This document shows positions 1-9,674 of a DNA stretch of 32,000 bases, piece by piece. The position numbers and the translations under genes are program-made. Every line of letters begins with the position of its first letter. Positions within the stretch are counted from its first letter, which is position 1. Location of the stretch: the NCBI GenBank assembly GCA_026387835.1, contig JAPLKZ010000011.1, positions 86,135-118,134 on the forward strand, in the 5' to 3' direction. Source of the stretch: Candidatus Saganbacteria bacterium (GTDB lineage Bacteria > Margulisbacteria > WOR-1 > JAKLHX01). Below the pieces are notes generated by a model. It did no database searches and had not been told where the DNA came from. It saw only the letters and a program-made list of their open reading frames with translations.

Positions 1-1073
<1,073 letters not shown>

Positions 1074-1077
<4 letters not shown>

Positions 1078-2279
1078 CCTCTAAGCTCCTTAAATGTTTT
1101 TGTCATGACCGGAAGGATCTCAAGGACGTCCCCGACTATTCCGTATGTTGCGACCCCGAATATAGGGGCGTAAGGGTCTTTGTTGATCGCGACTATGATG
1201 TCGGAAGAGGACATGCCTGCGAGATGCTGTATCGCGCCGGAAATACCGCATGCGATATAAAGTTTGGGGCTTACCGTCTTCCCGGTCTGTCCGACCTGGT
1301 GGAACTGCGATATCCATCCGGCGTCGACAGTGGCGCGCGAAGCTCCGACAGCTCCGCCGATCGTGTCGGCAAGGTCCTGTACCAGCCTGAAATTTTCCGC
1401 ACAGCCGATGCCCCTTCCTCCGGAAACAATTATCTCCGCCTCGGCAAGGTTTACCTTTTGCTCGGTCGATCTTATTATTTCTATAAGTTTTGTTCTTAAG
1501 GCTTTTCGGGAGATCTTCGGCTTAAACTCTATAATCCGGCCTTTTCTGTTCTGATCTTTTGGAAGCTTCTTGAAGACCTTAGGCCGGACGGTAGCCATCT
1601 GCGGCCTGTAATCTGGAGAGATGATCGTTGCCATGATATTTCCGCCGAAAGCAGGGCGTGTTTGTCTAAGGATCTTTTTATCAGGGTCTATATCAAGCCC
1701 CGTGCAGTCCGCGGTGAGGCCGACCCTGATCTGGCCGGCGATACGCGACGCGAGGTCTCTCCCCGTGGTGGTCGCTCCCAAAAGGACGATCTCAGGCTTG
1801 TACATTTTTATCAGGTCCACGATCACTTCGGTGTACGGTTCCGTCAGATAATTTTTTAGCAGCGGGTCGGTCGCCAAATATACTTTGTCGGCGCCGCTTT
1901 CAATGAGGGAGTTCACGGAGTCCTTTATGCTGTCATTTCCGAGAAGTACGGCCGCCACTTCCTCTTTAAGCGTGTGAGCGAGCTTTCTTGCCTCGGCCAA
2001 CAATTCCAGCGCGACTGATTGCACCTGGCCTTCATGCTGTTCGGCAAATATCCAGACCCCTTTAAAGGAAGAAAGGTCCTGCTTTGATGCCGTAACTTTT
2101 TTAGGCTCGATGATGACGGCGTTGAACTTGCAGGGAGCTATGCAGGCGCCGCAGAGCACGCAATTGTCATTTATTACCGCAAGCTTTCCACGCATCTCGA
2201 TCGCGCCGAAAGGACAGGAGGGAATGCATAATTTGCACCCTTTACATTTTTCCGCAATTACTTTAATTCCTTCAGGCAT
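1074..2279 (-). CDS. etfA: Electron-transfer flavoprotein alpha subunit with N-terminal 2x[4Fe-4S] ferredoxin domain
   Basis: 401-aa ORF. The first ~60 aa carry CKGCKLCIPSCP and CVLCGACIAPC cluster motifs. The rest is Etf-alpha, ending in the FAD-binding region PKLYIACGISGAIQHLAGM...AINKDP. The ATG shares its A with the etfB stop (TGATG). Confidence 0.9.
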
Positions 2280-3061
2280 CAGATTATTTTGTGCTCCTTT
2301 AGTTTCTTGAACAGTTTTTCCGAGACTTCCGCGGCTTCTCCCTCGAGGATCTCGCTTTTGCCTCTCGGAGGAGGAGTGAATATTTTTACGACCTGTGTCG
2401 GCGAGCCGTTAAGTCCGATGTTATCCTTGTCCGCGTTTATGTCAACCGCGGTCCATATAATGATCTCAGCTTTTTTTGCCCTCATCTGGCCTTTTAATGA
2501 CGGCATCCTTGGCTCGTTCATCTGTTTAAGTACTGTGACGGCAGCGGGAAGCTGTGTTTCAACAAGTTCTGCCGATTCCTCAAGATGCCTGCGGACCGTT
2601 ATTTTATTTCCTTCAATATCGGTCTTTATAGCAAAGGTTATCTGCGGTATGTCCAAGAATTGCGCCACGCCGGGTCCTACCTGCGCGGTGTCCCCGTCAA
2701 TAGCCTGTTTTCCGAAAAGAATAAGGTCAAAAGCCCCGATCTTCTTTATCGCTTGCGAAAGGGTGTAAGATGTCGCCCAGGTGTCGGCTCCCGCAAAAGC
2801 CCTGTCGCTGATGAGTATCGCATTGTCCGCTCCCATGGCGATAGCGCTTTTTAACGCTTCCGTGGCCTGTGAAGGGCCCATCGTAATGACGGTCACCTTT
2901 CCGCCGTGAATATCCCTGAGCCTGAGGGCTTCTTCTATGGCATTTTCATCAAAAGGGTTCACGATGCTTTTTACCCCTTCGCGTATAAGCGTGTTCGTTT
3001 TGGGATCGATCTTGACGTCATTCGTGTCAGGGACCTGTTTTATGCAGACGATGATGTTCAT
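2279..3061 (-). CDS. etfB: Electron-transfer flavoprotein beta subunit
   Basis: 260-aa ORF. The N-terminus MNIIVCIKQVPD and the central GKQAIDGDTAQVGP are typical Etf-beta. It lies immediately upstream of, and coupled to, etfA. Confidence 0.9.
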   Translation of the reverse strand: MNIIVCIKQVPDTNDVKIDPKTNTLIREGVKSIVNPFDENAIEEALRLRDIHGGKVTVITMGPSQATEALKSAIAMGADNAILISDRAFAGADTWATSYTLSQAIKKIGAFDLILFGKQAIDGDTAQVGPGVAQFLDIPQITFAIKTDIEGNKITVRRHLEESAELVETQLPAAVTVLKQMNEPRMPSLKGQMRAKKAEIIIWTAVDINADKDNIGLNGSPTQVVKIFTPPPRGKSEILEGEAAEVSEKLFKKLKEHKII

Positions 3062-3103
3062 GTTTTTTTTCTCTGTCGGCTCCCGATCGGATCGGGGCTT
3101 ACA

Positions 3104-4261
3104 CTATTTCTTTGTGGCTGCTTCCTTGATAAGGGAGAGCGCTATGACGTTTCTCTGTATCTGGTTAGTGCCTTCATAAATTTGAGTTATCTTTGCGTCC
3201 CTCATCATCTTTTCGACGGGATATTCTTTCATATAACCATAGCCGCCGAGCACCTGGACCGCATCGGTCGTCACCCTCATCGCCATATCGCTTGCAAAAA
3301 GCTTTGCCATTGCGGAATCTTTCGAAATATCGTCGGTGCCGGTATCAACTGTCCTGGCAGAAGCATAGACTAGAGCTCTTGCGGCCTCTATCTGTGTAGC
3401 CATATCGGCAAGGATATGCTGTACGGCTTGGATCGCCGAAATAGGCTTGTCAAACTGGATCCTCGTCCTTGAATAATTAACGGCTTCTTCAAACGCACCC
3501 TGGGCTATGCCGACTGCCTGGGCGCCGATGCCGGGCCTAGTCCTGTCAAGAGTTTTCATTGCCACAATAAAACCCATGCCTTCTTTCCCGAGTATCTGGG
3601 ATTTATGGATCTTGCAGTCCTGAAACACCAGCTCCCTTGTCGCGGAACATCTGATACCCATCTTGTTCTCTTTTTTGCCGAAAGTGAAGCCGGGAGTGCC
3701 TTTTTCCAATATGAAAGCTGTCGCGCCGCGGGTCCCTTTTGACTTGTTCGTCATGGCTATAACGGTATATGTTTCCGCTTCACCGCCGTTGGTGATCCAT
3801 TGCTTTGTCCCGTTAAGAATATAGTAATCGCCGTCTTTTTTTGCCGTAGTCTGTAAACCCGCGGCGTCGGAACCGGCATTGGCTTCGGTCAAACCGAAAG
3901 CCGCCAATTTCTTGCCGGATGCGATCGGAGGCAGATATTTTTGTCTTTGTTCCTCAGTCCCGAACATCAATATTGGATAAGCTCCCAGAGCTGAAGCGGC
4001 GAAAGTGACCCCCACTCCTCCGCAAACCCTGCTGATCTCCTCGGTAGCGAGACAGAATTCCATGCACCCTCCTCCAAAACCGCCCAGTTTTTCCGGTATA
4101 TAGAGGCCGCACAGGTCGGCTTCCGCGAATATCTTCATAAGTTCCCAGGGGAACTCGCCGGATTCGTCCAGTTCGGCCCTTACGGGTTTCACCTTCTCCT
4201 GCGAGATCTTCCTGGCAAGGTCCCTTATCATTTTTTGTTCTTCTGTCAGCAGATAATCCAT
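3104..4261 (-). CDS. Acyl-CoA dehydrogenase (short-chain / butyryl-CoA dehydrogenase-like)
   Basis: 385-aa ORF of full ACAD length. It has GLTEANAGSDA and the C-terminal catalytic-Glu context ITQIYEGTNQIQR. AGGAGG lies 8 nt upstream of ATG 4261. The order acd-etfB-etfA matches clostridial bcd-etfB-etfA. Confidence 0.9.
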   Translation of the reverse strand: MDYLLTEEQKMIRDLARKISQEKVKPVRAELDESGEFPWELMKIFAEADLCGLYIPEKLGGFGGGCMEFCLATEEISRVCGGVGVTFAASALGAYPILMFGTEEQRQKYLPPIASGKKLAAFGLTEANAGSDAAGLQTTAKKDGDYYILNGTKQWITNGGEAETYTVIAMTNKSKGTRGATAFILEKGTPGFTFGKKENKMGIRCSATRELVFQDCKIHKSQILGKEGMGFIVAMKTLDRTRPGIGAQAVGIAQGAFEEAVNYSRTRIQFDKPISAIQAVQHILADMATQIEAARALVYASARTVDTGTDDISKDSAMAKLFASDMAMRVTTDAVQVLGGYGYMKEYPVEKMMRDAKITQIYEGTNQIQRNVIALSLIKEAATKK

Positions 4262-4280
4262 CTGAATTTCCTCCTTTTGA

Positions 4281-4294
4281 TCTTACATCTTACA
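4281..4294. repeat. Tandem heptamer TCTTACA x2 (TGTAAGA x2 on the coding strand) just upstream of the acd Shine-Dalgarno
   Basis: Read directly: tcttaca (4281-4287) followed by tcttaca (4288-4294). Confidence 0.6.
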
Positions 4295-4300
4295 TTATTA

Positions 4301-4361
4301 ACCCTCACCCGGCCCTCTTTTTTTAATGAAAAGGGGCCACCCGACAGGGTACGGTGAGGGT
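4301..4361 (-). other. 61-nt nested inverted-repeat element (predicted three-stem RNA) abutting the fabH stop codon
   Basis: Outer arms ACCCTCACC (4301-4309) and GGTGAGGGT (4353-4361) give 9 bp. Inner hairpin GGCCC (4311-4315) / GGGCC (4334-4338) has extra A-T/G-T pairs. A small ACCC-tgtc-GGGT hairpin (rc of 4339-4350) lies between them. No U-tract follows on either strand. Hand-folded only. Confidence 0.35.
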
Positions 4362-5339
4362 CTATATTTCCCACCTTATGATGTTGGCCCCGGTAGTCAG
4401 CCCGGCGCCGAATCCGACAATAGCAATTATATCATCTTTTTTTATGCGGCCGCTGCGCCGTGCTTCGTCAAGCGCTATCGGGATCGACGCGGCAGAAGTA
4501 TTTCCGTACTTCTGGAGGTTCACGAAGATCCTCTCTTTGGGTATTGACAGCTTTTTTGACGTGTGGTCGATGATCCGGATATTTGCCTGATGAGGGATAA
4601 GAAGGGAAATGTCGTTTATCGAAAGTCCTGCCTCTTCAACGGCCTTCAGAAGCGAAGTCTCAAGAGCTTTTACGGCAAATTTGAAAACTTCCTTGCCGTC
4701 CATGGAGATGCAGCGCTCTTTTTCATTTTTTGGCCTGGGATTCCTGCTTCCACCCCCGGGCATCACAAGATGTCCGGCGCCTATTCCGTCGGCAGAAAGA
4801 TAGTCCGCCAGTATCCCGCGGCCTTTTTCGCAGGATTCAAGCACCACGGCCCCCGCGCCGTCACCAAAAAGCACGCAGGTCCCCCTGTCTGTCCAGTCAA
4901 GATATTTTGCCAGCGTGTCAGTCCCCACGACAAGCGCTTTCTTGTATTTTCCGGAAGAGAAGAACGCGTGCGCGGTAGCAAGGGCATAATTAAACCCTGA
5001 ACAGGCAGCCGAAACGTCAAAAGCGGCCGCGTTCTTTGCCCCGATCTTTCCCTGTATGATGCATCCGACTGACGGGAAAAGAGTGTCGGGGGTAGATGTG
5101 CCTACAATTATAAGGTCAAGTTCCTCGGCAGCAGTGCCCGCCGCTGAAAGGGCCTTTTTAACGGCAGTGAGCGCGAGGTCGGATGACGAGGTCTTTTCAT
5201 CCGTCACCCTTCTTTCTTCAATGCCAGTGCGGGACCTTATCCATTCGTCAGAAGTCTCGACGGTCTTTGAAAGATCGGCATTGGTCAGGATCTTTTCTGG
5301 AAGGGCGGACCCTGTTCCGATGATCTTAGCGCTTTTCAT
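4362..5339 (-). CDS. fabH: 3-oxoacyl-ACP synthase III FabH
   Basis: 325-aa ORF with the active-site Cys context DVSAACSGFNYAL, plus PHQANIRII and YGNTSAASIP. The ATG overlaps the plsX stop (ATGA). Confidence 0.95.
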   Translation of the reverse strand: MKSAKIIGTGSALPEKILTNADLSKTVETSDEWIRSRTGIEERRVTDEKTSSSDLALTAVKKALSAAGTAAEELDLIIVGTSTPDTLFPSVGCIIQGKIGAKNAAAFDVSAACSGFNYALATAHAFFSSGKYKKALVVGTDTLAKYLDWTDRGTCVLFGDGAGAVVLESCEKGRGILADYLSADGIGAGHLVMPGGGSRNPRPKNEKERCISMDGKEVFKFAVKALETSLLKAVEEAGLSINDISLLIPHQANIRIIDHTSKKLSIPKERIFVNLQKYGNTSAASIPIALDEARRSGRIKKDDIIAIVGFGAGLTTGANIIRWEI

Positions 5340-6310
5340 GCGATACCTTTCATAATGCTTTCCACTATATTTTCTTTCACGGCCTCGGCGCAGACCCTTA
5401 TTGCGTTCTTTACGGCTTTTGCCTTTGCTCTGCCGTGGGCCTTAAAAACTATGCCGTTCAACCCGAGAAGAGGGGCCGCGCCATGTTCGTCATAATCTAT
5501 GCGTTTTTTTAAATTGGAAAAAGAAGGCCTGAGAAGCAGAGCTCCGGCGGTTGACATCAGGCTTTTCTTAAGCTCTTCCTTAAGTAGTGTGATAATTATA
5601 TTGCTCGTGCTCTCGCACAGTTTAAGGACGACGTTGCCGACGAACCCGTCGCACACTATTACGTCGGCCTTGCCTGTAAGGATATCGTTCGGTTCGATAT
5701 AACCGGCGAAATTGATGCGGCTTTCTTTAAGCAGCGGGTATGACTCTCGCGTCAATTCATTCCCTTTTTCCAGTTCCGTCCCGATATTTAGCAGCCCCAC
5801 CCTGGGATTTTCGATGTGCATCACGTGTTCGGCATACTGGGCGCCCATCTGGCCGAACTGCTGGAGGTTCTTGGGCTTGCAGTCCACATTTGCTCCCATA
5901 TCAAGAAGCAGCACTTCCCCTCCCTGGACAGTCGGAAATATCGTGGCTATAGCGGGGCGCTCTATCCCTTCGATGCGGCCCAGCTTGAACAAAGACGCGG
6001 CCATCAGCGCACCCGTGTTTCCTGCCGAAATAAAAGCATCCGCCTTTTTATTCTTCACCAGTTCAAGCGCAATATTTATTGAGGAATTCTTTTTCTGTTT
6101 GGCAGCGATAACCGGGGATTCGTTCATGCCGATCACTTCATCTGCATGGACGATCTCGATGTTCTTTGACCTGACAAATGGTGCGACCCTGCGCCTGTCG
6201 CCGACAAGTATAAGGCTAAGCCCGCTTTCTTTTACGGCTTGTTCGGCGCCTTTAACGATCTCTTCGGGCGCGTGGTCACCGCCCATCGCGTCTATTGCGA
6301 TACGGATCAA
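5336..6310 (-). CDS. plsX: Phosphate:acyl-ACP acyltransferase PlsX
   Basis: 324-aa ORF with the N-terminus MIRIAIDAMGGDHAP. TTG start has AAGGAG 9 nt upstream. It follows rpmF as in the canonical cluster. Confidence 0.95.
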   Translation of the reverse strand: MIRIAIDAMGGDHAPEEIVKGAEQAVKESGLSLILVGDRRRVAPFVRSKNIEIVHADEVIGMNESPVIAAKQKKNSSINIALELVKNKKADAFISAGNTGALMAASLFKLGRIEGIERPAIATIFPTVQGGEVLLLDMGANVDCKPKNLQQFGQMGAQYAEHVMHIENPRVGLLNIGTELEKGNELTRESYPLLKESRINFAGYIEPNDILTGKADVIVCDGFVGNVVLKLCESTSNIIITLLKEELKKSLMSTAGALLLRPSFSNLKKRIDYDEHGAAPLLGLNGIVFKAHGRAKAKAVKNAIRVCAEAVKENIVESIMKGIA

Positions 6311-6313
6311 GGC

Positions 6314-6520
6314 TTATTTCTCCTTCTTGCCGTCCTTTTTTTCCTTAAGTGGGATCACCTGACGGCCTTGATATGTGCCGCATGACAGACAGGCTCTGTG
6401 AGAGAGGACCGGTTCTCCGCAGGAAGGGCAGGCTCCGAAATTGACCGGTTTTATCCTGAAATTAGCCTTTCTTCTTCTGTTTGTCCTTGTGTTGCTGTGT
6501 CGCTTCTTTGGTACCGGCAT
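6314..6520 (-). CDS. rpmF: 50S ribosomal protein L32 (zinc-ribbon form, Lys-rich C-terminal tail)
   Basis: MPVPKKRHSNTRTNRRRKANF... with CPSCG...CLSCG. AGGAGG lies 9 nt upstream of ATG 6520. Confidence 0.95.
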   Translation of the reverse strand: MPVPKKRHSNTRTNRRRKANFRIKPVNFGACPSCGEPVLSHRACLSCGTYQGRQVIPLKEKKDGKKEK

Positions 6521-7022
6521 TGTAAAAGTCCTCCTTTAATTTTGCAAACCTGGGATCTATCTTCTTACTGTTCTCTATGCAACCTTTTATTCCCTTACAA
6601 CCCTTATCACACAGAGTTTTTATCGGGATGCAGGAAATGAGCTCCTGCCTTATGATCTCCCCGATGTCTATCGTGTTATCTTTTTCTATCGGGAAGATAA
6701 AATCATCATCTCCAAGTTCTTTCTCTCCGCCGCGCCCATCTCCATTCTTTGTTGTCTTGCTGAACAGCTCTTCAAAATCGACCGTGATCTGCTGATCGAA
6801 ATCTTTTAGGCATCTGCTGCAGTTGAGTTTTATCTCCGCCAGGATCTTTCCTGTGACGATGACCATTTCCCCCGCATTTAGGAGATGAACACTCAGCTGA
6901 ACTGGCCCGGTTATCTCAAGACCGTCTTCAGGATATGAGACCCGGATCTGTTCTTCTACATCCTGATCGTTGCCGATCTCTTTCAGAAGACCGGTCAGGT
7001 CGATTTTCATTTGTATTTTCAT
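6462..7022 (-). CDS. yceD: YceD/DUF177 family protein (large-subunit rRNA accumulation protein)
   Basis: 186-aa ORF with Cys pairs CSRCLKDF and LCDKGCKG and a DPRFAKLKE-type C-terminal region. Its position directly upstream of rpmF is canonical. The start is uncertain (ATG 7022 or ATG 7010), and the 3' end overlaps rpmF by 59 nt. Confidence 0.8.
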   Translation of the reverse strand: MKIQMKIDLTGLLKEIGNDQDVEEQIRVSYPEDGLEITGPVQLSVHLLNAGEMVIVTGKILAEIKLNCSRCLKDFDQQITVDFEELFSKTTKNGDGRGGEKELGDDDFIFPIEKDNTIDIGEIIRQELISCIPIKTLCDKGCKGIKGCIENSKKIDPRFAKLKEDFYNAGTKEATQQHKDKQKKKG

Positions 7023-7050
7023 TATATAGGCTCATATAGCCGGGGGTCAA
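7021..7050 (-). promoter_or_regulatory. Candidate sigma70-type promoter for the yceD-rpmF-plsX-fab operon
   Basis: Minus strand reads TTGACC (7050-7045) - 18 nt - TATAAT (7026-7021). The -10 overlaps the first ATG of the ORF. Confidence 0.35.
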
Positions 7051-7061
7051 GGGAGGGGTGG

Positions 7062-7955
7062 TCAACGGGCCCTCGGATGAGTTTTGTCGTAAACAGATTT
7101 TAACCTTTCTTTTGTCACGTGCGTATATATTTGGGTGGTCGAAAGCGATCTGTGCCCGAGAAGTTCCTGTACGGACCTCAGGTCGGCCCCCCTTTCAAGA
7201 AGATGCGTGGCAAAGCTGTGCCTCAATGAATGAGGGGTCACCTTCTTGTCTATCCCGGCTTTTTTCGCGTATTTTTTTATCATGCGTTCGACTGACCTCG
7301 GGGTCAGCCGGCTACCGGAACGGCCGATAAAAAGCGCCCGGTTCTTTACGGTCCCGTTGGCCAGCTTATTCCTCGCATATTTGAGATAATCCCCCAATGC
7401 CGTCAGGGCGGAAGACCCGACCAGGACAATTCGTTCTTTAGAGCCTTTACCGAACACGGTCGTTTCGCCGTCAGATCTGTTAATATCATTCATATTAAGC
7501 CCTGTAAGTTCGCTTACTCTGATCCCTGAAGCGTACAGTATCTCGATCATCGCAAGATCCCTTATGCCGGCGGGTGTCTTTCTGTCGGGCTGCTCAAGCA
7601 GCCGTTCCATCTCTTCGATATACAAAAAATGAGGCAGATTTTTTTGTATCTTGGGTATCGATACTATCTTCCAGGGGTTGGAATGCGCATAGCCTTCTCT
7701 CATAAGGAATTTATAAAAGGACCGGTAGCAGGAGATCTTTCTTGCGACCGATTTTCTGGAAAGACCGTTGTTTTCCATTGCCATGATGAACGTCCTTGCG
7801 AGGAATTTATTGAATTGGTCAAATCCGTCAAGGTTTTGCCCCTTGATAAAAGAAGCGAACTGTCCCAGGTCAAGAGAGTAATTATCGGCAGTGTGACGGG
7901 AAAAGTTCCTTTCCCTTTTGATGTGGTCAATGAACAGGCCGATCTTTTTTAACAT
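7062..7955 (-). CDS. XerC/XerD-family tyrosine recombinase
   Basis: 297-aa ORF with an N-terminal SAM-like core-binding domain and the C-terminal catalytic region HSLRHSFATHLLERGADLRSVQELLGHRSLSTTQIYTHV. Confidence 0.85.
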   Translation of the reverse strand: MLKKIGLFIDHIKRERNFSRHTADNYSLDLGQFASFIKGQNLDGFDQFNKFLARTFIMAMENNGLSRKSVARKISCYRSFYKFLMREGYAHSNPWKIVSIPKIQKNLPHFLYIEEMERLLEQPDRKTPAGIRDLAMIEILYASGIRVSELTGLNMNDINRSDGETTVFGKGSKERIVLVGSSALTALGDYLKYARNKLANGTVKNRALFIGRSGSRLTPRSVERMIKKYAKKAGIDKKVTPHSLRHSFATHLLERGADLRSVQELLGHRSLSTTQIYTHVTKERLKSVYDKTHPRAR

Positions 7956-7965
7956 CTGCTAGGGT

Positions 7966-8400
7966 TCAAATACCGTACTTTGATCTTATTTCAGGGGTCA
8001 CGGGTGATATCTTGCCGTTTTCTTTGACCCATTCCTCTTTTTCTCCGGGATCCTTGGGCTCTCTGGTGTCTATATGGAGAGTCTTTTCCTGAGGATAGTA
8101 ACCTATGCCTGAGACCTCGGGCAGGCTTTTTGCAAAGGCATAGAGTTCTTTCAGATCGACGCCGTCGATAGAGATATGGGCTGCTTTTCCCAGGCGGTGG
8201 GAGTTCTTCTTTTGCGTGTCGTGTTTCTCGCTGTAGAGTTCGCAGCGGAACGCGTCATGGATGTGCGGGACCTTTCTAAAATGGGCGGCTACGGCTTCAA
8301 GCGCGCCCACAAGACCGAGATGTATCCTGACCTGGCCGCGGCACTCGCCGCAGCGGCAGGAAAAATCCCTGTTGCTGTAATGTTCGCTCAGATTTCCCAC
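7966..8400 (-). CDS. Peptidase M15A (YcbK/DUF882-like) family protein with altered metal-ligand motif
   Basis: 144-aa ORF. FSCRCGECRG, NSHRLGKAAHI (family pattern SxHxxGxAxD) and LHIDTR resemble zinc D,D-/L,D-peptidase M15A. GTG start has no SD. Confidence 0.55.
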   Translation of the reverse strand: MGNLSEHYSNRDFSCRCGECRGQVRIHLGLVGALEAVAAHFRKVPHIHDAFRCELYSEKHDTQKKNSHRLGKAAHISIDGVDLKELYAFAKSLPEVSGIGYYPQEKTLHIDTREPKDPGEKEEWVKENGKISPVTPEIRSKYGI

Positions 8401-8406
8401 GCAGAT

Positions 8407-8435
8407 ATTTTAGCACCAGTTGAGAGTGTTGGCAA
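8407..8435 (-). promoter_or_regulatory. Candidate promoter for the M15A-like/xer genes; predicts a leaderless GTG-start mRNA
   Basis: Minus strand reads TTGCCA (8435-8430) - 17 nt - TGcTAAAAT (8415-8407), then 6 nt to GTG 8400. Confidence 0.45.
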
Positions 8436-8448
8436 ATAATGGTAAAAT
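8420..8448 (+). promoter_or_regulatory. Candidate metK promoter
   Basis: TTGAGA (8420-8425) - 17 nt - TGgTAAAAT (8440-8448), about 30 nt upstream of the metK SD. Confidence 0.55.
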
Positions 8449-8483
8449 TATTTTGTTTGAAAATATTTAAAGGAGAAAAAGTA

Positions 8484-9674
8484 ATGTCAATGAAACATTT
8501 ATTCACGTCTGAATCGGTCACTGAGGGGCATCCTGATAAGATGTGTGACCAGATATCGGATGCGATACTTGACGCGATAATAGAAAAAGACCCGCCCGCA
8601 AGGGTCGCAGTCGAAGCTTTGACGACGAACGGACTTGTGATAGTAGCGGGCGAGGTGACGACCGGCACTTATATAGACATTCCGTCAATAGTCAGGAACA
8701 CTATAAAGGATATCGGTTACGTCAGCAGGGAGATCGGTTTTGATTATGAGACATGCGGGGTAATGGTATCGATCAAAGAACAGTCAAAAGATATAGCAAG
8801 AGGGGTCGATAAGGCGCTCGAGGTCAGGGGCGGGGAGGTCATAAAAGAAGACCTGGAAAATATCGGTGCCGGCGACCAGGGCCTCATGTTCGGCTATGCC
8901 TGCAACGAAACACCGGAGTTGATGCCGCTTCCGATAAGTCTGGCCCAAAAGCTTGCCAAGAAGCTTGCAGATGTGAGGAAAAACAAGGAACTCACGTATT
9001 TAAGGCCGGACGGGAAAACCCAGGTGACCGTGGAATATCAGAACGGAAAACCGGTACGGATAGACAGCGTGCTCATCGCGACACAGCATAATCCTGATGC
9101 CGCGCCGGAAAAGATCAAAGAGGACATGATAAATCATGTAGTAAAAAAGATCATCCCGGCCGGTCTGATCGACAAAGACACAAAATATTATGTCAACCCT
9201 ACCGGAAGGTTTGTGATCGGAGGCCCCCAGGGAGACACGGGGCTCACGGGAAGGAAGATAATAATCGATACTTACGGAGGATACGCGCGTCACGGGGGCG
9301 GCGCATTTTCAGGAAAAGACCCGACAAAAGTCGACAGGTCCGGGAGTTACGCGGTAAGATATGTGGCCAAGAACATTGTTGCTGCAGGGCTGGCCGACAA
9401 GTGCGAGGTCCAGGTCGCTTACGCGATAGGCGTGGCGCGTCCGCTTTCAGTGATGGTGGACACTTTCGGAACGGGGAAAATTGCAGAGGAGAAGATCTCG
9501 CGGCTTGTGAACGAGTATTTTGACCTGAGACCGGGACTGATCATAGGCAATCTTAATTTAAGAAGGCCGCTTTACAGGCAGGTAGCGTCTTACGGGCATT
9601 TCGGAAGACCGGAGCTCGATCTTCCTTGGGAAAATACGGACAAAGCCGAAGTTCTTAAGAAAGCCGCAAAATAA
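8484..9674 (+). CDS. metK: S-adenosylmethionine synthetase
   Basis: The track ORF starts at 8439, but AGGAG (8471-8475) precedes ATG 8484 by 8 nt. [19 protein letters not shown] is the usual MetK N-terminus, and [12 protein letters not shown] is present. Confidence 0.95.

Follow-up and report, generated by a model that had tools for sequence, protein, structure and literature searches.

A 32,000-nt stretch of Candidatus Saganbacteria DNA (the whole of which is called the window here; coordinates are 1-based from its first letter) carries on its minus strand a three-gene module, acd-etfB-etfA, embedded in an operon for type II fatty-acid synthesis (FASII). The module encodes a flavoprotein of the acyl-CoA dehydrogenase (ACAD) fold and two subunits of an electron-transferring flavoprotein. 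Open reading frame (ORF) calls placed yceD-rpmF-plsX-fabH-acd-etfB-etfA-fabD-fabG, all co-directional, in window 1-7050, and the coordinates, together with family and domain matches, confirmed this order as it had been proposed in a first-pass annotation of the DNA. Within the module, acd (3104..4261, 385 aa) matched the Pfam domains Acyl-CoA_dh_N, _M and _1, etfB (2279..3061, 260 aa) carries an ETF domain and reached 345 bits with the NCBIfam model flavo_sub_EftB, and etfA (1074..2279, 401 aa) matched Pfam Fer4, ETF and ETF_alpha. Upstream lie fabH (4362..5339), coding for beta-ketoacyl-acyl carrier protein (ACP) synthase III (TIGR00747, 414 bits against a cutoff of 292), plsX (5336..6310), coding for the phosphate acyltransferase (TIGR00182, 409 bits against 243), rpmF (6314..6520), coding for ribosomal protein L32 (Pfam Ribosomal_L32p), and the first gene of the operon, the DUF177-family yceD (6462..7022; Pfam YceD). 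Downstream lie fabD (166..1077), coding for the malonyl-CoA:ACP transacylase (TIGR00128, 383 bits against 261), and the 5' part of fabG (1..169, GTG start at 169), which is cut by the window edge; the full-length fabG on contig L001, described below, scored 329 bits with TIGR01830 (cutoff 298).

The start/stop overlaps listed in the first-pass annotation follow directly from these coordinates: TGATG for etfB/etfA, TTGA for etfA/fabD, GTGA for fabD/fabG and ATGA for plsX/fabH. The TTG start of fabD has support from the FabD model, whose alignment begins at residue 2. Judged from the overlaps, fabD is translationally coupled both to etfA and to fabG. The base composition of acd-etfB-etfA is the same as that of its flanks.

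Acd fell under the cutoff of every NCBIfam equivalog (the best was AcrC, with 463 bits against 640). Compared with proteins of solved structure, it scored 434 bits with the C. difficile Bcd (5ol2_C), 421 bits with the A. fermentans Bcd and 339 bits with CarC. The catalytic-Glu context IYEGTNQIQR, which had been pointed out from the sequence, aligned to IYEGTSEVQR of the C. difficile enzyme. In that Bcd, residues E198, F155, Y340, D345 and Y346 dock domain II of EtfA; Acd has E198, Y341, E346 and Y347 at the positions of E198, Y340, D345 and Y346, and W155 at the position of F155. In a tree, the 80 Acds of the cross-phylum sample defined below formed one tight clade, which a long branch separates from its sister group, the characterised Bcds. 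Members from different phyla are 65-74% identical to one another and 48-56% identical to the Bcds of C. difficile, A. fermentans and M. elsdenii, which among themselves share 58-67%. These values indicate that the Acd clade is distinct and strongly constrained. At least 120 homologues with 77-100% identity to Acd were retrieved, mostly from Margulisiibacteriota/Saganbacteria and including one identical protein in a Candidatus Saganbacteria metagenome-assembled genome (MAG). None of the best 120 matches of the protein searches came from a cultured organism, all being from MAGs or metagenome sequences, and PGAP gives the proteins of the module generic names.

Both Etf subunits resembled bifurcating rather than non-bifurcating proteins. 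EtfB scored 222-274 bits with five structurally characterised bifurcating Etfs (CarD, C. difficile, A. fermentans, T. maritima EtfABCX and LctB), the highest values being 274 for CarD (6fah_B), 257 for the C. difficile EtfB and 250 for the A. fermentans EtfB, versus 93-123 bits with non-bifurcating ETFs (109-123 with those of human and Paracoccus). EtfA scored 288-441 bits with bifurcating Etfs versus 127-175 bits with non-bifurcating ones, and its best full-length match in the PDB was CarE (6fah_A, 441 bits, residues 4-394). An N-terminal ferredoxin domain with two [4Fe-4S] motifs occupies approximately residues 1-65 of EtfA (roughly window 2085-2279). EtfA of the window has two CxxCxxCxxxC motifs, as do 42 of the 44 EtfA ORFs found beside Acds of the clade; the two ORFs that lack the two-cluster motifs look miscalled. 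By sequence, then, EtfB and EtfA are of the bifurcating type, in which EtfB holds a second FAD where other ETFs have AMP. Matheus Carnevali et al. annotated the module simply as Bcd/EtfAB, made no mention of the fab operon, and considered that the Etf of Margulisbacteria/Saganbacteria binds AMP and is unlikely to bifurcate (PMC6349859). For Saganbacteria, this non-bifurcating call conflicts with the best matches to bifurcating Etfs, and appears to need correcting.

Two characterised systems are close to the module. With Bcd-EtfAB (C. difficile 5ol2; A. fermentans 4l1f/4kpu; M. elsdenii 1buc) it shares the gene order acd-etfB-etfA, the three-domain ACAD fold, the catalytic Glu in a YEGT motif, an Etf of bifurcating type, the kept Etf-docking residues and presumably the chemistry, in which 2 NADH reduce one enoyl thioester and ferredoxin. 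The module differs in that its Acd belongs to a separate, more conserved sister clade and reaches no curated equivalog, that the EtfA of the window has an extra ferredoxin domain, that it was never found beside crt/hbd/thl in the loci probed, in many of which it lies in or beside FASII operons, and that the host genomes appear to lack the crotonyl-CoA pathway. With CarCDE, the caffeyl-CoA reductase-Etf complex of Acetobacterium woodii (6fah), it shares a homologous EtfA that includes the two-cluster N-terminal domain of CarE, and the best match of EtfB is CarD; in contrast, Acd is nearer to Bcd than to CarC, the genes nearby are those of FASII, and no caffeate-activation genes are among them. 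From homology and conserved residues, we conclude that the module is an NADH-dependent, ferredoxin-reducing enoyl-thioester reductase of the Bcd/CarCDE type.

An Acd identical to that of the window is present on Logan contigs, one of which, the 57.5-kb contig L001, continues the operon past the window edge as fabG-acpP-NMO-fabF. Its ACP, FabG and FabF passed their family cutoffs. The additional gene between acpP and fabF (L001:15183-16190, ~1 kb beyond window position 1, that is, downstream on the minus strand) encodes a protein of the nitronate monooxygenase (NMO) fold that is annotated merely as 'nitronate monooxygenase'. The first-pass annotation had stated that no enoyl-ACP reductase (ENR) of the FabI, FabK, FabL or FabV type was visible in this part of the operon. 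Within the window this holds, because the window edge cuts the operon before acpP-NMO-fabF; beyond the edge it does not, as the NMO gene belongs to the FabK/FabX family.

The fabH-acd-etfBA-fabD junction was present in all relatives examined. The loci L007, L009, L087, L088, L089 and L090, whose Acds are 78-95% identical to that of the window, all have fabH-acd-etfB-etfA-fabD-fabG, and the five that reach past fabG (all but L009) continue acpP-NMO-fabF. The 12-gene order yceD-rpmF-plsX-fabH-acd-etfB-etfA-fabD-fabG-acpP-NMO-fabF was found in all Margulisiibacteriota loci with enough flank. Relatives are packed more tightly than the window, with 4-5 nt between fabH and acd, and with acd and etfB overlapping or 1-5 nt apart. 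The NMO gene again lies between acpP and fabF (L007:15197-16171; L016:15167-16147; L087:14082-15041; L088:14075-15037; L089:14093-15046; L090:11328-12317). Every Margulisiibacteriota locus extending beyond acpP has kept the gene, as has L016.

For the cross-phylum sample, GTDB species representatives provided 80 loci with an Acd 67-87% identical to the query. The proteins of the window were mapped on these loci by tblastn, ~10 kb of flank was examined per locus, and a block was scored as linked when it lay within 1.5 kb of a FASII gene and on the same strand. The Acd(-Etf) block was fab-linked in 41 of the 80 loci and not adjacent in 25, and the remaining 14 had too little flank to judge. The order acd-etfB-etfA, which had been likened to that of the clostridial bcd-etfB-etfA unit, was kept in 43 loci. 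Linkage was observed in at least nine phylum-level lineages (Margulisiibacteriota, Nitrospirota, Omnitrophota, Thermodesulfobacteriota, Rokuibacteriota, Ratteibacteria, Edwardsbacteria, UBP2 and UBP3) and at four or more operon positions: fabH-[acd-etfBA]-fabD; fabF-(rnc)-[acd-etfBA]-smc; plsX-[acd]-fabD, with no fabH; and fabH-[acd-etfBA]-fabG, with no fabD. In Omnitrophota the module follows fabF or rnc and precedes smc, far from fabH. The intergenic gaps at the fab-linked loci are operon-like. A one-off horizontal insertion unrelated to fatty-acid synthesis could be read from the lineage-specific 95-nt insert at the fabH/acd junction of the window (see below), but the junction is kept throughout the phylum and is met again in many others, the composition is uniform and the module is translationally coupled to fabD; this explanation is refuted. 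We consider it probable that the module is functionally tied to FASII.

The survey also gave several observations on individual lineages. In the Thermodesulfobacteriota loci L043, L085, L080 and L056 the order is plsX-acd-fabD or plsX-acd-fabG, with acd 36 nt after plsX, and in L059, L064, L084 and L086 it is fabH-acd-etfBA-fabG, with the module in the fabD slot; these operons are without fabH or fabD at the usual place because acd or acd-etfBA sits in the slot. In a Nitrospirota sub-clade (L028, L017, L068, L026, L035, L036, L042, L046, L048, L049, L060 and L067) Acd follows a PRTase-QueD-PmbA block, some members having acd-etfB-etfA-fabD detached from the other fab genes and others a lone Acd without Etf. 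The genes upstream of this Acd had been guessed to be accB-accC, and proved to be those for PRTase, QueD and PmbA. Inserted genes were seen in the fab clusters of an Edwardsbacteria locus, an unclassified MAG and an Omnitrophota locus (L013:5918-6643; L018:3877-4611 and 5630-6667; L024:6551-7297). They were considered as a hidden FabK or FabI, and turned out to encode TonB_C, CarboxypepD_reg-like and NTP_transferase proteins.

Partner genes of a CoA-dependent pathway were sought with tblastn probes whose family membership had been confirmed by Pfam scans. No crt, hbd, thl, fabI or fabZ was found within ~10 kb of Acd at 86 loci. The genome-level picture came from the KEGG Orthology (KO) calls in Supplementary Data 2 and 3 of PMC6349859, which cover 46 genomes, 26 of them Saganbacteria. 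By these calls FabI (K00208), FabK (K02371) and Hbd (K00074) are absent from all 26 Saganbacteria and thiolase (K00626) from 24, and K00248 ('Bcd') is present in 23; nearly all have ACC, FabD, FabH, FabF, FabG, PlsX and Etf, and most have Rnf (PMC6349859). The FabI-bearing relatives, Marinamargulisbacteria and Sericytochromatia, have no Bcd call (PMC6349859), an anti-correlation that is confounded by aerobic versus anaerobic lifestyle.

These absences bear on the alternative offered in the first-pass annotation, that the module supplies butyryl-CoA or another short saturated acyl-CoA as primer to FabH. In its favor, acd is directly downstream of fabH in the window, and the nearest characterised relatives of Acd, Bcd and AcrC, are short-chain enzymes. 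However, no route to crotonyl-CoA is apparent, because thl, hbd and crt are missing from the probed loci and Hbd and thiolase from the KO calls. Moreover, the Omnitrophota module is far from fabH, several Thermodesulfobacteriota operons have the module but no fabH, and a C4 primer would lead to the same even-chain products as acetyl-CoA, with no apparent benefit. We therefore disfavor primer supply, and regard it as very improbable.

The NMO protein deserves attention as a second redox enzyme of the operon in Margulisiibacteriota. With the FabK equivalog TIGR03151 it scored 179-214 bits (179 for the L001 copy), under the cutoff of 453, and neither by this cutoff nor by the NAD(P)H-binding C-terminal region is it a FabK. 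Its best solved sequence relative is the H. pylori FabX (145 bits; FabKs gave ~130 bits), to which it is 41% identical over the aligned parts, below the authors' criterion of >50% for homologues. FabX/UfaA is a [4Fe-4S] NMO-family decanoyl-ACP dehydrogenase/isomerase (H. pylori 7e1q; N. gonorrhoeae NGO1024) in which the [4Fe-4S] subdomain takes the place of the NAD(P)H site of FabK. The NMO protein shares with it a GGH catalytic His, an Arg aligned with the ACP-contact residue R164, and four Cys aligned to the [4Fe-4S] ligands C300/C304/C308/C320, although the spacing is C-x2-C-x3-C-x4-C rather than the C-x3-C-x3-C-x11-C of FabX. The four Cys and the catalytic His are invariant in 30 homologues and in L001, L007, L016 and L087-L089. 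An AF2 model (pLDDT 89.9) gave a TMq of 0.86 on FabX and of 0.80-0.82 on FabKs, values too close to discriminate between the two. The NMO protein may represent a third Fe-S subgroup of the FabK/FabX family. It could serve as an ENR that depends on ferredoxin or Etf, or else act in the anaerobic synthesis of unsaturated fatty acids.

One alternative is that the NMO [4Fe-4S] flavoprotein is the ENR of FASII, with FabI, FabK, FabL or FabV encoded elsewhere serving in the other phyla; Acd-EtfBA would then be a CoA-specific bifurcating enoyl-CoA reductase for redox balance, placed in the rpmF-plsX-fab-rnc-smc neighbourhood by co-expression or drift. The conservation of the NMO gene in Margulisiibacteriota operons and the near-equal fit of its fold to FabK are in keeping with this, as is the partial compensation of FabK inhibition in F. 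nucleatum by overexpression of the FabX homologue; the naming of the module as plain Bcd/EtfAB in the genome paper would also suit it. But the characterised FabX-type enzymes are dehydrogenase/isomerases whose hosts have another protein as ENR (FabI in H. pylori, FabK in F. nucleatum), and the NMO protein both fails the FabK cutoff and carries the Fe-S motif in place of the NAD(P)H site. In other phyla (Nitrospirota, Omnitrophota, Thermodesulfobacteriota and others) the operons of most fab-linked module loci are without the NMO gene, so that the NMO protein cannot explain the general pattern. For a CoA-specific module, furthermore, no CoA substrate is evident, because genes for enoyl-CoA-producing partners were not found near the 86 loci and Hbd and thiolase are absent by KO, and the fab linkage recurs in the many lineages and positions described above with operon-like spacing. 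On balance we hold this explanation to be unlikely, though to be taken seriously.

A further alternative makes the module an acyl-ACP dehydrogenase that runs a confurcating 'backtracking' step, or has the NMO [4Fe-4S] cluster rely on the ferredoxin domain of EtfA as its missing redox partner. FabX-family enzymes of anaerobes need an electron acceptor that is yet to be identified, the NMO protein has the four Cys, catalytic His and Arg of the FabX type, and the sole other redox proteins of the operon are Acd and the Etf with its ferredoxin domain. Since most fab-linked operons lack the NMO gene, however, partnership with it cannot be the general function of the module, and low-potential clusters are poor acceptors of electrons from an acyl/enoyl couple near -10 mV. 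We know of no characterised system that pairs an Acd-Etf with a FabX-type enzyme. This alternative appears improbable to us.

The reading that we favor is that acd-etfB-etfA encodes an NADH-dependent, ferredoxin-reducing, bifurcating enoyl-ACP reductase of FASII. The recurrent embedding of the module among fab genes at varied positions, the lack of CoA-pathway partners, and Saganbacteria that apparently have neither a crotonyl-CoA route nor a canonical ENR together suggest a role in FASII, and enoyl-ACP reduction is the one FASII reaction that fits the chemistry of the module. The first-pass annotation had proposed an Etf/ferredoxin-coupled enoyl reductase of this kind. Two of the outcomes that it had named as counting against the proposal, a junction absent from all relatives and a conventional ENR elsewhere in the genome together with a complete crt/hbd/thl pathway, were checked, the second by KO, and neither was found. 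Its premise of an operon free of ENR candidates fails with the NMO gene. An Etf/ferredoxin-coupled ENR stays the best single reading, because the junction is conserved, no canonical FabI or FabK is found by KO, the NMO protein fails the FabK cutoff and FabX types coexist with a separate ENR. We put its probability at roughly 0.45. At those same odds the module would be a fifth, structurally unrelated class of ENR and the physiological ENR of Saganbacteria and of many strictly anaerobic phyla (Nitrospirota/Thermodesulfovibrionia, Omnitrophota, Thermodesulfobacteriota, Rokuibacteriota and others), yielding one reduced ferredoxin per elongation cycle.

By analogy with the characterised complexes, NADH would reduce the bifurcating beta-FAD in EtfB, from which the low-potential electron would pass to the two [4Fe-4S] clusters of the N-terminal domain of EtfA and on to ferredoxin or flavodoxin. 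The other electron would go to the alpha-FAD on the mobile domain II of EtfA, which would swing onto the Acd tetramer and reduce the FAD of Acd. After two such rounds the FADH- of Acd would give a hydride to the trans-2-enoyl thioester made by FabZ, with Glu363 as the acid, and the product acyl-ACP would enter the next FabF condensation. The net reaction per cycle would be 2 NADH + oxidised ferredoxin + enoyl-ACP -> 2 NAD+ + reduced ferredoxin + acyl-ACP. The enoyl/acyl couple lies at about -10 mV and NADH at -320 mV, and bifurcation stores the difference as reduced ferredoxin; the energy that FabI or FabK dissipates would thus be kept in a form usable by Rnf or hydrogenases. In this scheme we infer complex formation, the direction of the reaction, acyl-ACP and not acyl-CoA as substrate, and the chain-length range.

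The position of the module has a counterpart in Firmicutes, where the fab operons of Streptococcus and Clostridium carry fabK in the slot between fabH and fabD. If the bifurcating ENR reading holds, the module and FabK, the FMN-dependent enoyl-ACP reductase II, would have the same pathway role, would occupy the same fabH-[x]-fabD slot and would both be flavoenzymes, but FabK is an NMO TIM barrel that carries out a simple NADH-dependent reduction, whereas the module consists of three subunits of ACAD and Etf type with predicted ferredoxin coupling. All known ENRs are different in fold, FabI, FabL and FabV being short-chain dehydrogenases/reductases (SDR) and FabK of the NMO fold, whereas the only folds in Acd, EtfB and EtfA are ACAD and ETF. 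By analogy, there is precedent for ACAD-fold enzymes with a physiological reductase role in Bcd, CarC and AcrC, and for carrier-protein substrates in RedW, PigA and MbtN. The latter are ACAD-fold enzymes that work on acyl- or aminoacyl-carrier-protein substrates and are weaker homologues of Acd, which scored far under their NCBIfam cutoffs (RedW 265 against 650, PigA 249 against 500, MbtN 53 against 700); unlike the module, they catalyse oxidations in secondary metabolism and do not bifurcate electrons through an Etf.

A number of observations weigh against a bifurcating ENR. Some concern the substrate: Acd is 53-55% identical to genuine crotonyl-CoA reductases, and a search for a basic patch for ACP docking among the 18 clade-specific invariant positions found only R303 gained, which is uninformative and gives no clear ACP-docking signature. 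A C4-C16 substrate range is not evident, because the nearest solved relatives of Acd act on short chains. Others concern gene context. The 25 loci that are not fab-adjacent comprise all judgeable Bacillota loci, where, as in Verrucomicrobiota, the clade members stand in unrelated gene contexts, together with the Verrucomicrobiota and the Nitrospirota sub-clade; in 37 of the 80 loci Acd has no adjacent Etf; and the 80 loci are phylogenetically non-independent. In the lineages with inserted genes the fab operons are not strictly FASII-only, because unrelated genes are interspersed, and in Margulisiibacteriota a second candidate ENR, the NMO-[4Fe-4S] protein, is present in the same operon. The identity of Acd to true Bcds, the lack of a docking signature, the third of the clade members that is not fab-linked and the inserted genes count, by the same token, in favor of the NMO protein as ENR. 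Finally, the KO table does not list FabV or FabL, its absences are soft because the thresholds miss FabZ in almost all genomes, and in the other phyla the search for FabI covered the ~10-kb flanks.

The fabH and acd genes of the window are separated by a 100-nt spacer (4262..4361, minus strand), which carries its own AAGGAGG ribosome-binding site for acd. As had been claimed from the sequence, it is structured: the fold has -34.5 kcal/mol (z = -3.6), and 0 of 200 shuffles were equally stable. The spacer sequence is present in a single copy in the window, gave no match in Rfam and lacks a T-tract or terminator-like T-run. Since the gap is only 4-5 nt in L090, a 95%-identical relative, and in L007 and L087-L089, the spacer is an insertion private to the lineage of the window. 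The inserted hairpin element measures ~95 nt and brings the new ribosome-binding site for acd; it could be a small mobile or REP-like element. A regulatory RNA was considered and rejected, the spacer having no Rfam match and not being kept even in the 95%-identical relative.

Directly upstream of yceD, the best promoter-like site in window 1-8500 was found, TTGACC-18-TATAAT (7021..7050, minus strand), which agrees with the consensus at 11 of 12 positions; on this consensus match it is the likely candidate for the operon promoter. At window 6462-6520, 59 nt are shared by the ORFs of yceD and rpmF, which are read in different frames. The same is seen in L001 and not in L087-L089; YceD may be extended at its C-terminus, or the stop context may be miscalled. 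From 8439 to 31345 the window holds ordinary housekeeping genes (metK, a NAGPA-domain protein, an SMC_N/AAA_23 ATPase, a histidine kinase, a ClpC-like ATPase, radA, dapB, an M16 peptidase, nadD, proA, proB, a methyltransferase and rlmN), and no ENR, crt, hbd or thl was found in it.

Enoyl-ACP reduction is the FASII step with the greatest diversity of enzymes and a major antibiotic target. To our knowledge four ENR families have been described, all of them simple NAD(P)H-dependent enzymes that discard ~60 kJ/mol per cycle, and our full-text literature searches turned up neither an Acd/Etf-type ENR nor this gene arrangement. Bifurcating Acd-Etf complexes are already known; what would be new is their systematic integration into FASII, and the ACP-directed, energy-conserving ENR that it implies. 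Even if the module should prove not to be an ENR, two results stand: i) a conserved Bcd-like/CarE-like module is linked to fab operons in many phyla, and ii) the published non-bifurcating call for this Etf needs to be corrected. If acd-etfB-etfA does encode the bifurcating enoyl-ACP reductase, it would constitute a new structural class of ENR and the first case of electron bifurcation that conserves energy within a biosynthetic (anabolic) pathway, and it would account for the apparent gap in FASII when the metabolism of Saganbacteria, and possibly that of other uncultured anaerobic phyla, is reconstructed.

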